From Schmidtea nova (taxonomy: Eukaryota): DNA of 64,000 nt. Shown here in pieces: positions 16,750 to 22,533 of the stretch. Each line of letters starts with the position of its first letter. Within the stretch, counting starts at the first letter, position 1. The notes beneath the pieces were generated by a model. That model was not told where the DNA came from. It made no database searches and saw only the letters and a program-made list of their open reading frames with translations. A program made the translations under genes and the position numbers. The stretch spans positions 238,886,001 through 238,950,000 of the forward strand of contig CM097883.1 of the NCBI GenBank assembly GCA_044892505.1, written 5' to 3'.

Positions 16750-18203
16750 AAAGGTTTTTTATACAAATCTTTATTTCATTACGGTATCAAAAATAGAATT
16801 TTATTTTTCTATTGGAAATCTCTTTGTTTGTGTTTTATATAAATTTCGCTGAAAATTCTTTGACTGAATTTGAACTCTTTGTTTCCTATATTTTTCGACA
16901 GTTGCACTATTATCTTCCATTTAAGATACAATTTTATTTTTTTAAATTAAATAATTAGGATTTATTTAAAAGGAAATTAATTAATTTTTAATATTTATTT
17001 ATTTAGTGTTCTCTCTCTCTTTCGAATCATTTTATTTAAAAAATTCTTTGCGCGTTTTTCATTTGCAACTCAGATTTTCATATTAGTAGGGAAATTTTGA
17101 CATTGCGCAGAATAATTACCTTTTTATGTTATATCACATCCAAAAACTCTATAATAGACATATGAGGAACTAAATCTATTATTTATGATGTAAAAATACT
17201 ATTGAGTTCAGGTCAAGGGAGTGCAATTACAATCTTAAATGTGATCGATTTTTCTGATAAAACTCTGAAAACATTTACCGATCTGTGGAATCAATAATTT
17301 AACATATTTTGACTCTAAAATATGGTGCTATCAGACTTCTAATGATATCCATAAAGATTTGGTGTTAAAACGGGTCTTCTATTGCGATATACACTGGTAT
17401 TAATGACACACAAGTCTCATTTATTCTACGATTAGTCGCAACAGTTATTTTTTCTGTGTTCATTTCTTTCTGGTGCGATTATTTTTCATCAATTAATTAG
17501 GCATAAAATCAATAGGGTATATATTTAATACCTCTTTTAAAAGTGTTGGTCAAAAATGAAACCCAACGAACTTTTGTTTTATCGAAACGGTAACAGCACG
17601 TAAAGATTGCGAGCGAAGTGAATTTAAAATTTGTGATGAGAAAACACCAAGTAAGCAAATTGATGAAAAAGCACATTGCTGGTGTGGTGGTAGATGTGTT
17701 GATTTGATTTTATCTTTCGCTAGGGTTAACTCCACCAACATAAAAAATGTGTAACCTTCGCGATGATGGCTGTAAGACGCACCATAGTTTTATCTCACGT
17801 TGGTACTGCATCAACCATTGTATATCAAGGGGAAGGTGAGCAATCGAGGTAATTACTATTCCCCTCATTTCACATACTAGGGTTCTGTTGGGCCAAGCGA
17901 TCTAAAATAAAACATAGAATAAATTAAATAAAATAGCAACAAATAATACCAGTAAGTGAGCAGAAAATAACTTACCGATCGGCATATGATCAGCGCACAT
18001 CAAAAATTGATAAAAGAATAAAAGCAAAATTAAATAACAATACAAAAAACTTACTCAGCTGGAACCAAAGATGACAGGTGTAGGCCGATACTGATGATAA
18101 ATCTAAAATATAACAAAAGATTAATGAAAGAATGAAAAACGAGCAAATAATGACTCAATGAATTGAATACATAAAGAAATCATCAAGCATAAAAGATAGG
18201 CAA

Positions 18204-19685
18204 TATATAGCATTTTCACGTTAAATTAGACACTTTCCATTTTAAATTAGACACTTTCGAATTTGAATTAGACACTTTAAAAGTTGAATTGGACACTAGT
18301 TATAAAACTGTAAAAGACGTGAATATATATTTCAAATAAGACGACTAATCGAAACATGATCTTTCAAATTTTAAATCGCTCTCCTGCCACTGCTTTTGAA
18401 ATGTTATTCATCATATGCATAACATATCCACAACAATCACCCGGGTCAATATTGTTCAAGCCATTACAGATAATATCCCGTAGATTTACATTATCCACAT
18501 TCGATGATAAAATATTCTTGACGAAACTTCTACTTACTCCATGCATTTTCGATGGGATTCAGCATGTATGAATAGGGTGAGAGAAATTTCAATACAAATT
18601 TAGTATCGGTAAGGATGTTTCGTATATAATCAGTTTTATGAATTTGAGCATTATCCAAAATTATCCATGCACCGTTGTAAATCTCATCGCGTTGAATAAT
18701 CGCAATTAGCTCCATTATAAAATCACCGAATATTGAACTTGTACAAGTACTGTCGCCAACAATGCGGCTATGAATACTTTTGTTTGAATTCATTGCTGCA
18801 ATAACAGTTACATTTCGACCTCTCACTGTTGGCATCACGATATTTGCCCTTGTTCCAATTTTTGAGCGGGCGGTAGTTCGACGAATATGTAGATTAAAAC
18901 CACATTCGTCTATAAAAATGCATTTCTCTTTCAGCGCAGGAGCATTTCGGGCAAAATCCAATGCGTATCGTCGTCTCTTTTCAATGGTTTCTGGTAAATT
19001 TACTCGTTCAAGTTCACGAGAAGCCTTTTTACATGTAATACGAAGCTTCTCAAGACATTTAGACACAGACGTGGTTGATAAAGACACTCCTTCGGCTTCA
19101 AGTTTGTTTTTTATCATTTTTAAAGTAATTTGATTATGATTCTCCACAAAAAATTCAATTCGGTCCAATATATAATCAGTAATTTTTGTTTTATTGTTAC
19201 CACCTCTTTTGCCTACAATAAAAGTTCCTTTACGCTTGTAGTTGTTTATTATCGTTCTCGCGGTGCTCTCATTAATTCTGCAAGATGCTGCTGCTTCCTT
19301 TATTGTTTTCCCGTCCACTGTGACCATGCTTATTAGCACCATTTTAACGTCCCGGGTGGATTTGGCATACGATTTCTTTATAGGAGATTCGCGATTTTCA
19401 TGTACATACCGCACCATCAATTTCAGTTTCTTCAATGTTTGATCCCTCAGAAAATTCATAATATCGACCATTTGACATGATAAATGATTTCAAACGATTA
19501 TATATTTTTGGGCGGGAATTTAGTTGATATGTTCTGTCTATAAAGTATTTTTATAAAAACACGTTTATTAAATAGTAGGGGTTTTATAATTAGTGTCCAA
19601 TTCAACTTTTAAAGTGTCTAATTCAAATTCGAAAGTGTCTAATTTAAAATGGAAAGTGTCTAATTTAACGCGAAAATGCTATATA
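18204..19685 (-). mobile_element. IS630/Tc1-mariner DD34E transposon inserted in the LTR
   Basis: ~105-bp TIRs with internal TTAGACACTTT subrepeats, TA/TATA flanks. Confidence 0.93.
18364..19471 (-). pseudogene. DD34E transposase; frameshift near 18535 separates the last ~55 aa
   Basis: FIDECGF, ILDNAQIH, then 34 residues to the E of FLSPYSYMLNPIE; C-terminus continues in ORF 18364-18546. Confidence 0.9.
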
Positions 19686-19700
19686 CACGCATGCTCAATT

Positions 19701-19740
19701 CTGATTGGCTGGCCAGCAACGTCACTCAGTATAAATACTG
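19701..19740 (+). promoter_or_regulatory. Putative LTR core promoter (reverse CCAAT, ACGTCA, TATAAATA)
   Basis: GATTGG at ~19703, ACGTCA at ~19719, TATAAATA at 19730-19737; motif inspection only. Confidence 0.55.
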
Positions 19741-21577
19741 TAGTGAAATCAGTAGCAGGAGTCATTTTTTTGTACGGTCACTTTTACAGAAAACAAAAAT
19801 TGTGCCAAGTGTTAAATTACGAATAACTGAAATTAGAACAGCTTTGTAACTGTGAAGAGTTCAACAAATAAAAGGCACCTGAGTTGAATGTTATAATTCT
19901 TAATAACCCCTCATAATAAAATCTATAAGTCTCGTCCCGAAGATCTAACGATCTGACTGGATTCTCGGCCTCTCGGCGCAACACATTTTCATGTGAGGTG
20001 CTGATGCGGCGAGACCATAAGTGTTTTAACTAATTCGGAAGGGGAAGGGTGCACATGGCTCGTTCGAGTAACGAATGGGAGGAGAAGTAATATCAGATAG
20101 TCCTAAATGCGAGACGACCAGGGTTAAGGTCAGACATGATCATCGTAAATGACAATCAATAACATAATAAATGCGAGGGTACGAGGGAAATTAGAACACC
20201 AAAGACTTGATTCGATTGGTACAAAAGCTAGAGACATGAATTCCGACTATCAGTTACCCGAGTTAAAACCCCGCAATACAAATTGTCGTGTATGGATCTA
20301 ACCAACTACAATACCCTCCCGATTAATTACAATGTACAAATTGCTCGAGGTGAATTGAATGTGAATGTGTATGGAATCGATGACGGTGAAACGTGCGTGA
20401 CTGATGTATTATGCGACATAGGGTTATGACCAGGCCCACGAAAATAATTAATATCTATCTACTAAATCTGAGTAGCAATAGCCAGTACAGTACTGTTCAA
20501 ACACAAAGTAGTATGAATGCGTAGGGTAGGTATGATTAAATACACTGAATGTGATCATGCGATCAGATTGTTGATTAGAAAAGTTACAGCAACTATGGAT
20601 GGAATCTGCCAAGTAATTAATTTAAATAGTTTGTATGGGTGAGGTAAAAGCGTATGATGTGGCATGAACGAAGTATGATGAAAGAGTGTGCGAAACAGCC
20701 GACATACGATGGAATGATGGGTAATAGGTCGGAACCTTCAACTAATGCCTCCATCTTTTTAGAAAATGAAATACCAAAGCATACGACGGCGAAGTCGTGC
20801 TATTCAAAGATGGCGTTTCGAAGATCCGACACTCATCCCCAGTGCTATAAAGCGGTCGGCCGAGCGACACTTGAGAGCCTGGATGCGAGGCCACGTCGAC
20901 CCAGCCACCCGAGGAACGATAGAGTCTTTCCAGCTAAGGGTGCGATGGGAAGGAGATCAGGAATGGCCAGTGTCATCATAGACGACGAACCGAGCCGGCA
21001 GCCGATGGTTTCTACAACTTGAGAATCCCCAAAGCCAACCCAAATGGATATTAAGCGATAATTCTATGTCAGGGTCCGACTTCCACAAACTCGGATATCT
21101 CCTAATGGACCAACCCCGATGTGTTTACACGGGAGAAAGACACCCGGAATTATAAATATGAATACTCAGTCGGGGCCAAACAACGAAAGACTATGGGAAG
21201 TCTTTGCATACCAGGATCGATTGTGCTGGGACCCGTGCCCAGAAATCTACCAACCGGATGGGCAAGGGCGAGCCGATCGACGATTTGACCAGGACCTATT
21301 GGAATTTTTCTAAAGGAGATGACAACGCGAACGGAAAGGTGTCATGATTTGTGATGAAGTTAATAAATGAGTATACTAAGCAGTCTTGTGTTTAATTCAA
21401 TGAAAAGCGAATGATGTAAGTATGATGTTGGTTTACCAATGAGTGACTGTATGATAAGGAAAAGGGGAGATGCCGATTTGTGAATATTGATACCATAACA
21501 TCCAAGGGTAAGAGGGGGACATAGGACCGTAAATGGAACCTAGGACAGATTGATCTTGGTATCCTTCTTTTTTTTGG

Positions 21578-22135
21578 ATGAGTGACAACCACAATCGTAA
21601 CTACAAGAGAGAGGCTAAGGAACACAAGATCCGAATTAGAGTTCTCGAAGGTAGACTACAACAGCTAGGCGAGGAACACCAAAGGGTAAAAACCACATGG
21701 TTTCATCCGGAACGGGTGAAGCTGATTCAACGAGCGAGATACAGAGCCGAGCAGATAGCTGACGAGCAAACACAAAAGACTGCGGCTGTAAAGCTGGAAC
21801 TAAACAACTATATGAGGGTGTCCACCAAAGAATTCATCACGCAGCAGTTGCGACCCCTCATTCGAGCCAGCACTTTCAATCGCTGGGTGGAGACTACTAA
21901 TGTATCGATGAGTACACAAACAGATATGGATACGAGCTCCATGGCAAACACTCCAATAACCGTGGCGCAGCCTGAGGGCTCAAAGCGAACAAAGCGTCGG
22001 AACCGATTAGGAGCAAAACGGAGACGCGAGCGAAGAGAATATGCCGAAAGAATCGGAATTGAAGTAGACCTGCTAAGTGGTCTCACTGAGAAACAATTGA
22101 TCGCTGTAATAAACCCATCGGTACTATTGAATTAA
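21578..22135 (+). CDS. LTR-encoded 185-aa coiled-coil protein with an Arg-rich C-terminal motif, function unknown
   Basis: Intact ORF followed by AATAAA. Homologous pseudogenes at 1-369, 31817-32361 and ~40272-40815. KRTKRRNRLGAKRRRERRE motif. Confidence 0.75.
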   Translation: MSDNHNRNYKREAKEHKIRIRVLEGRLQQLGEEHQRVKTTWFHPERVKLIQRARYRAEQIADEQTQKTAAVKLELNNYMRVSTKEFITQQLRPLIRASTFNRWVETTNVSMSTQTDMDTSSMANTPITVAQPEGSKRTKRRNRLGAKRRRERREYAERIGIEVDLLSGLTEKQLIAVINPSVLLN

Positions 22136-22533
22136 AAATAAATGTATGTTAGTTAAATGGTTTGACTTGATTGCTTGAGGTATGCATGCGAAATCTAATT
22201 CAAAGCTGAGATAGGGAAGCTGATTCATTTTATGCTACAGGACATACCGAAATCGAACTTACCCTAGAGAAACAAAGAGAGCGAGTAATAAGGGACCGAA
22301 ACAAAACCACATAAACCTTCTAACGGTAGTGGTGGACCCGTGAATAAACAAGGGAACAAGGTTGCTCACCTGCCTTGTCATTTCACAACGTTGACACAGT
22401 ACCAACATGATGAGTAGTTAGGGATACATCATGGGTGTCAGCGGGAGGTTTTTTTATGTTGGCGAGATGAACCTAACGTATAAAATCAAACATGATCTCA
22501 GTTGAACATCCAACCAACACACCAGCATAAATT

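Follow-up and report, generated by a model that had tools for sequence, protein, structure and literature searches.

The 64,000-nucleotide stretch of Schmidtea nova DNA analysed here (hereafter the window; positions 238,886,001 to 238,950,000 of contig CM097883.1, assembly GCA_044892505.1, numbered from its first letter) carries the 5′ long terminal repeat (LTR) of a Burro-type giant Ty3/gypsy element of ~29 kb, which we call family 1. We are confident that the LTR of this family holds two spliced genes under selection, the open reading frames (ORFs) ORF-A and ORF-B, behind a promoter and a short first exon. The role of ORF-B is a far more tentative matter: it might be a Rev-like, dimeric nuclear protein acting in trans on the unspliced RNA of the element, a reading that could well be wrong. 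An original prediction had described the LTR as a self-contained gene for a coiled-coil, Arg-rich protein. Splicing and purifying selection bear this out, but the LTR contains two genes, ORF-A having been missed.

The evidence for two genes comes from the way in which copies of the LTR have diverged. We compared 39 copies, picked by similarity to the non-coding unique 5′ region (U5), together with the neighbouring copy that ends at window position 771, a set of 40 loci none of which is followed by a primer-binding site (PBS). Over 40 of the 41 sequences, picked by U5 DNA, the ratio of nonsynonymous to synonymous substitution rates (dN/dS) of ORF-B was 0.14 (511 of 780 pairs, the remaining ones being saturated or too short), against 1.10–1.70 in four other frames, 0.25 in the antisense frame sharing its third positions, and 0.69–0.97 in U5. 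Neutral evolution of this ORF, which the original prediction had named as a ground for refutation, is largely refuted by these values. Stop codons tell the same story, with a mean of 1.2 per copy in ORF-B versus 5–15 in the control frames. In the 39 other copies, AATAAA follows ORF-B in 38, YAG precedes it in 34 and the ATG is present in 34. ORF-A was revealed by codon-phase variation; its dN/dS is 0.25 (38 of 41 sequences; 276 of 703 pairs; raw ratio of the corresponding proportions, pN/pS, 0.50), in a set where, as in that of ORF-B, synonymous sites lie near saturation. AATAAA follows ORF-A in 35 of the 39 other copies, and in the window copy the frame is broken by stops and a frameshift. 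Sequence searches found no homologue of ORF-A (the word-based ones covering near-length proteins only), and a fold search with its structural model (predicted TM-score, pTM, 0.62) was uninformative, giving a best Z of 3.5 (rmsd 3.6, 73 residues aligned) and a best viral E of 0.24. Three divergent LTRs (L133, L135 and L139) have an ORF of 159–166 amino acids at the position of ORF-A, ~1.75 kb before the PBS, which is tied to ORF-A through weak matches to L121 and L130 alone.

The signals for a spliced transcript lie upstream of the two genes. The TATA box at 19730, which like ORF-B at 21578–22135 and its AATAAA (22137–22142) was found as originally predicted, is part of the LTR and not of a nested insertion, and transcription would probably start near 19760. 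A donor follows ~115 nt behind this probable start, just after an AATAAA that is present in 32 of the 41 sequences, with GT following in 29 of those 32. This one donor near 19875 would serve the acceptors of both ORFs, each of which has its own acceptor, ATG and AATAAA. With a probe for the junction between exon 1 and ORF-B, we found one match in the genome, against 196 for the unspliced acceptor. In the solo LTR behind that match (L161/L166/L168), the unique 3′ region (U3), TATA box and exon 1 run directly into ORF-B, and relative to its sister copy L162 it is missing 1.73 kb, which correspond exactly to the interval from donor to acceptor in L162. The remaining U5 is kept on the far side of a nested ~15-kb insertion, and an exact 4-bp target duplication stands at the ends of the LTR. 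Most simply, the copy would go back to a spliced RNA that read through the AATAAA of ORF-B, was reverse-transcribed and integrated. Read in this way, the copy, a single event, shows cis-splicing of this intron, not mRNA abundance, and it leaves some room for a DNA deletion at a 2-nt overlap. It fits models with a short R region and with the originally proposed long one alike. The AATAAA before the donor would permit a short R with a very long U5; in four divergent LTRs read by eye (L121, L123, L133 and L139) this pairing of AATAAA and donor was not seen. The window copy departs from the consensus at the donor and at the ORF-B acceptor, and therefore probably does not make the spliced ORF-B mRNA itself. 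In four runs of unrecorded kind, contigs cover intron, transposon and exons alike, which is not evidence on expression, and no joint at the ORF-B acceptor was found among the 15 of 45 contig joints listed.

The extent of the LTR is well defined, its ends (TG at 17886, CA at 22527) agreeing with those of other copies. The giant LTR of the original prediction is thus real, but 1.48 kb of its 4.64-kb span is a nested Tc1/mariner DNA transposon with 105-nt inverted repeats, and without this insertion the family LTR is ~3.16 kb. The transposon is missing at this place in the other LTR copies, and contig joints skip 1480 nt with TA..TA ends. Both ends could be located in 18 family-1 copies, with lengths of 2.8–3.24 kb, mostly ~3.16 kb; in 15 of these 18 the LTR is flanked by an exact 4-bp target duplication, and those copies are therefore solo LTRs. 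The suggestion that solo LTRs could express the ORF is consistent with this, most of the copies examined being solo and the LTR unit being self-contained. The neighbouring copy at window positions 1–771 (L100) is the end of a family-1 solo LTR with a 4-bp target duplication and a broken ORF-B. The element is flanked directly, on the opposite strand, by the U5 module of a third LTR family at 17717–17885 (minus strand), and was therefore inserted into another related LTR; a search with the U5 profile gave 10 such modules in the window. Several ACTTAC motifs, resembling minus-strand donors, cluster at 17960–18070 in the family-1 U3 and at 30960–31070 inside a family-2 LTR, where an antisense spliced transcript is possible.

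The ORF-B protein consists of a helical N-terminal part, a Ser/Thr/Pro linker, a basic motif at residues 136–152 and a conserved C-terminus. Its basic stretch, the Arg-rich motif of the original prediction, has 11 Arg or Lys in 17 residues, a clustering matched by only 3 of 5000 shuffles, and basic residues are similarly clustered in 13 of 13 ORF-B proteins (p ≤ 0.017). Constraint peaks in the basic block (pN/pS 0.15) and the C-terminus (0.13), compared with 0.48 in the linker. Across the 13 proteins, at 19–80% identity, G145, R149 and R150 are invariant, and a WFxP motif is kept as well. In an AlphaFold2 model (pTM 0.30), a linker of low confidence separates long helices from a basic helix. 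The coiled-coil character proposed earlier is also predicted by modelling of residues 1–110, for which a parallel homodimer scored 0.57 versus 0.00 for the best of three controls; the runs share at least 86% of contacts, with a predicted local distance difference test (pLDDT) of at least 78. Among microbial proteins, 21 of 30 solved pairs passed the mark used for a dimer, as did 0 of 23 single chains; the corresponding figures for eukaryotes are 17 of 29 and 0 of 30. ORF-B is accordingly predicted to dimerise by a parallel coiled coil.

Two RNA modules accompany the genes. The leader module, just inside the intron, is also kept in the gene-less LTRs L132, L136 and L137. The U5 module had been described as structured, and this stands as far as its conserved, covarying helices are concerned, but folded alone it is no stabler than shuffles (z −0.93 in family 1, −1.46 in family 2). 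In its two bulged hairpins, aligned over 16 sequences from several families, both partners have changed in 16 of the 22 pairs and 98.8% of cells are paired, as compared with 0 of 500 shuffles as good and 30–49% in slid controls, although the structure was derived from the same alignment and the rows are related, so that these figures are flattering. The window copy has a short deletion in the module near 22356, and Rfam returned nothing beyond two chance-level small nucleolar RNA hits. By its position, the module would lie outside the mRNAs of ORF-A and ORF-B, provided that each stops at the AATAAA of its own ORF, and within an intron of spliced mRNAs from further downstream, and would therefore mark the RNA that carries the PBS. 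An extended pairing of U5 with the body of tRNA-Pro was considered and is not supported: just 8–11-nt stretches were found, in varying places and with no control, and the locus copy used for this check has a TAT anticodon.

ORF-B recurs in other LTR families. Among 40 PBS-adjacent LTRs chosen from the first 100 junction matches (19 non-family-2 and 21 family-2), relatives of ORF-B lie ~1 kb before the PBS in 11 of the 19 non-family-2 LTRs, one of them partial. LTRs of the family-1 type without the genes retain the TATA box, the leader module and the U5 module, and are much shorter, with ~1.2 kb from TATA to PBS. In family 2, the ORF has a layout resembling that of ORF-B and a dN/dS of 0.16 (31 mostly protein-picked copies, hence biased low). 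The claim that the two families keep a homologous ORF could not be established: family 1 against family 2 gave a BLASTP E of 29 and a profile probability of 1.8%, deeper alignments reached 27.5% over 41 columns, covering the basic motif alone, and the N-terminal parts gave 0.4%, so that alignability did not extend beyond the basic motif. For comparison, family 1 against the divergent families gave 99.4% over 144 columns. The alignment of the basic motif across families scored 30, while none of 60 shuffles exceeded 18, and homology of ORF-B and the family-2 ORF is possible. The ‘HNR’ and ‘TW..E.V’ likenesses, which had been taken as evidence of homology, were rejected on the profile comparisons; ‘HNR’ varies in family 1 (residues 1–10 have a pN/pS of 0.44), stands at another position in family 2, and in the window's family-2 copy is even in another frame. 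Four family-2 variants (L101, L105, L112 and L116) jump from ~31770 to 32589 and lack the ORF cassette, and a second family-2 LTR in the window (39724–43858, minus strand) has an ORF with stops. One candidate for a spliced family-2 copy (L052) was discarded, its upstream DNA being another repeat.

As a potential role for ORF-B, we considered a regulator of the Rev type. On such a scheme, transcription would start near 19760 in any intact LTR, solo LTRs included, and splicing to the acceptor of ORF-A or ORF-B with cleavage at the next AATAAA would give single-gene mRNAs. The genomic RNA would stay unspliced and read through the AATAAA signals, and no other RNA would carry both the U5 module and the PBS. 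The genomic RNA must escape a donor and two or more AATAAA signals, which is a reason for supposing a trans-acting factor. The basic motif of ORF-B might, as a guess, bind the leader or the U5 module and thereby favour survival or export of the unspliced RNA, and gene-less elements might, again as a guess, borrow the protein. One could further speculate that a Rev-like regulator moved into the LTR, and that very many solo LTRs now stand as regulatory genes of their own, whose product would reach gene-less elements in trans and act on the bulged U5 module beside the PBS; we consider this unlikely though not far-fetched. Two traits of Rev-type proteins were observed, a spliced origin (in one genomic copy) and a conserved basic motif. 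A small, selected, basic protein that is predicted to dimerise, derives from a spliced mRNA and can be missing in cis from LTRs that retain the RNA modules would fit a Rev-like role, and CERV of the Cer1 element (see below) is a precedent for such a role in gypsy.

A number of observations weigh against this role. Rev-like proteins bear a leucine-rich export signal (PMC3856414); in ORF-B, no position of such a signal is conserved across families by a simple leucine-rich pattern, which atypical signals would escape, and loose matches occur at shifting places in 9 of 13 relatives and are missing from L121, L133, L135 and L139. In L125 and L126 (2 of the 13 proteins) the basic motif is Lys-rich, with 3 Arg in 12 residues, and therefore fits a plain nuclear-localisation signal. 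No match to ORF-B came from Pfam, from PDB sequences or from Foldseek (none at E 0.001), and homologue searches were empty (the word-based ones covering near-length proteins only). A coiled-coil dimer is a generic feature, and the dimer mark was reached by 1 of 7 eukaryotic proteins without an older solved relative. The U5 module abuts the PBS, its invariant 5′ part is predicted to pair with it, and its place suits a response element and a packaging or priming signal equally. Moreover, a full open ORF-B is found in only 13 of the 40 family-1 loci, the genes are absent from 8 of the 19 non-family-2 and 19 of the 21 family-2 PBS-adjacent LTRs, and the family-2 ORF is absent from 14 of 20 family-2 loci picked by U5 (present in 6 of 20).

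The same data are explained almost as well if ORF-B is nuclear cargo that modulates the host, with a motif that is a mere localisation signal and a U5 module that serves packaging or priming by Gag, reverse transcriptase (RT) and tRNA-Pro; we regard this, too, as a doubtful but serious possibility. The other cargo of the element (RING, TRAF/MATH and ankyrin proteins) points to host modulation and so speaks against a Rev-like role, the Lys-rich motifs and the lack of a conserved export signal agree with a cargo protein, and the U5 module, which can pair with the adjoining PBS, is common to family 2, whose ORF barely aligns. The spliced RNA that kept U5 and lost the leader module was, furthermore, still copied. 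However, the Gly and Arg positions invariant across 19–30% identity are stricter than a simple localisation signal usually needs, and the element clearly needs to protect its unspliced RNA.

A predicted parallel dimer with a basic helix, together with a leader hairpin that is conserved near the probable start, would also be in keeping with ORF-B as a transactivator of the LTR promoter, a coiled-coil dimer on DNA or on nascent leader RNA in the manner of Tat/Tas or a basic leucine zipper (bZIP). This is improbable: the basic region is C-terminal and set apart from the coil by a low-confidence linker, a layout that differs from that of bZIP proteins, and Pfam gave no match. A function of ORF-B as a nucleic-acid chaperone in the particle, freeing the PBS from its pairing with U5 so that tRNA-Pro can prime or a long strong-stop product can be transferred, is in our view very improbable. 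Such a role would suit the predicted pairing, the distance of ~2.77 kb from the probable start to the PBS, which implies an unusually long strong-stop of about 2.8 kb, and the much shorter gene-less LTRs, but Gag already has CCHC knuckles. Most copies are broken and many LTRs lack the genes, as would be expected of decayed passengers without current function; this last reading is exceedingly improbable, being largely refuted by dN/dS values of 0.14–0.25 with synonymous sites near saturation, by homologues that divergent families carry in the corresponding position and by an ORF-B that is open in both of a pair of 99.9%-identical LTRs. Rev-like action on unspliced RNA is retained as a tentative reading.

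The assignment of the element to the Burro type rests on its internal region and on a full-length relative, to which the window copy's internal part is 84–88% identical. The LTRs of this relative are 99.9% identical over 3305 bp, its two ORF-B copies lie 26.2 kb apart and are both open, and by Pfam it encodes a CCHC gag, a fusion glycoprotein, protease (PR), RT, RNase H (RH), integrase (IN), ankyrins and a TRAF/MATH ORF. A size of ~30 kb, paired multi-kb LTRs, the order gag-glycoprotein-PR-RT-RH-IN and ankyrin, MATH-TRAF and RING cargo agree with Burro; BIR and BCL2-like cargo had no Pfam match at E 0.001 in 8 frames of the relative. Homologues of the RING ORF were found behind divergent LTRs too. 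In the window, the family-1 element is interrupted downstream of gag by a family-2 LTR at ~28630 (Table 1). The U5–PBS junction pattern has 1478 matches in the host genome, on the reverse strand alone. The tRNA-Pro(TGG) gene pattern has 1106 matches genome-wide, one copy being called tRNA-Ile(TAT), and a tandem tRNA-Pro(TGG) array with a period of 308 bp starts from 459.6 Mb of one host contig (L170). Two tandem arrays at 24200–25310, between the RING ORF and gag, one of them with units of 84–97 nt and a repeated short inverted motif, are possible further leader RNA elements. Beyond these, the window contains smaller gypsy elements at 51530–63754, one nested in another, and a 1.6-kb repeat (54443–56065 and 61045–62667, 99.8% identical) that holds the start of a long ORF.

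Table 1 Features of the family-1 element and its surroundings in the window
Feature	Position	Strand	Remarks
5′ LTR, family 1	17886..22527	+	ends match other copies; PBS, RING ORF and gag downstream
Nested Tc1/mariner DNA transposon, foreign to the LTR family	18206..19685	−	transposase 18530–19471, DDE_3 E 6.5e-22
Promoter, CCAAT-like box and TATA (19730)	19686..19760	+	kept in family copies and divergent families
Non-coding exon 1	19760..19876	+	AATAAA 19867–19872, donor position 19875
Leader module, just inside the intron	19889..20056	+	low diversity; fold z −1.98
ORF-A, ~188 amino acids, Trp/Cys-rich	20766..21313	+	AATAAA 21362–21367; open in other copies
ORF-B, 185 amino acids	21578..22135	+	open in the window copy; AATAAA 22137–22142
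U5 module, invariant motifs plus two bulged hairpins	22315..22527	+	covariation
PBS, host tRNA-Pro	22534..22551	+	complementary to 3′ end of host tRNA-Pro(TGG) genes
RING-finger accessory ORF	23093..23551	+	zf-C3HC4_3 E 3.1e-07; own acceptor-like site
gag, Retrotrans_gag with CCHC knuckles	26181..27095	+	Pfam; sole Pfam-recognised core gene in the window copy
Family-2 LTR	28630..32839	+	~187-amino-acid ORF about 31814–32361, frameshifted here; homologous U5 module

Several parts of this picture have precedents. In mouse mammary tumour virus (MMTV), sag lies in U3. As with MMTV sag and naf, a protein gene sits inside the LTR (PMC9412291), whereas here two genes lie downstream of the main TATA, each with an acceptor and AATAAA. 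Burro/GYPSM1 are planarian giant gypsy-like elements with multi-kb LTRs and very many copies (PMC6431247). The element resembles them in its ~29 kb, a CCHC gag that a fusion glycoprotein separates from protease, RT-RNase H-integrase, ankyrin and TRAF/MATH, and differs in that neither ORFs nor introns are described for the Burro LTR in the passages of PMC6431247 consulted. The C. elegans element Cer1 makes CERV from a spliced mRNA, and CERV is required for export of unspliced RNA (PMC10309623, which in the sections consulted maps no RNA element for it), so that the original statement that no such pair is known in Ty3/gypsy needs correcting. By description, not by sequence, both cases are Ty3/gypsy elements with a tRNA-Pro PBS and an accessory protein from a spliced mRNA with a predicted coiled-coil oligomer; CERV, however, has 517 amino acids, a place in the internal region, a Cys loop and a G-protein-like domain, while ORF-B has 185 and lies wholly in the LTR. 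With Rev, Rex and Rem (PMC3856414, PMC9412291), ORF-B shares being a small basic protein from a spliced mRNA, to which a predicted oligomer and a candidate structured RNA confined to unspliced transcripts may be added; it differs in lacking a conserved export signal or homology, in the doubling of its gene in both LTRs and in the module's place beside the PBS. In foamy virus, too, a donor lies close to a poly(A) signal inside the LTR, in both LTR copies (PMC3694450), whereas here AATAAA stands just before the donor, a pairing not seen in the four divergent LTRs named above. Burro itself, LTR-borne ORFs (MMTV) and a Rev-like gypsy protein (CERV) are thus known already. We found no report in print, the original Burro description not being covered, of two selected, spliced genes downstream of an LTR promoter, and the available parts of PMC5408684, PMC8532177 and PMC11410931 contain nothing on LTR ORFs. 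To these, the present analysis adds tests of selection controlled by other frames, a solo LTR that shows the ORF-B splice, a basic motif common to several families, a covariation test, counts of gene-less LTRs and the failure to establish homology with family 2.

LTRs are usually seen as regulatory sequence, and a solo LTR counts as a dead remnant. An LTR with two selected, spliced genes makes solo LTRs potential protein-coding loci, present in very many copies. It also raises the question of how a genomic RNA of 29 kb gets past a donor, several acceptors and two or more internal poly(A) signals. If the Rev-like reading is true, ORF-B would join CERV as the second Rev-like factor of Ty3/gypsy, independent of the first, and the covariation would already outline its candidate RNA element.

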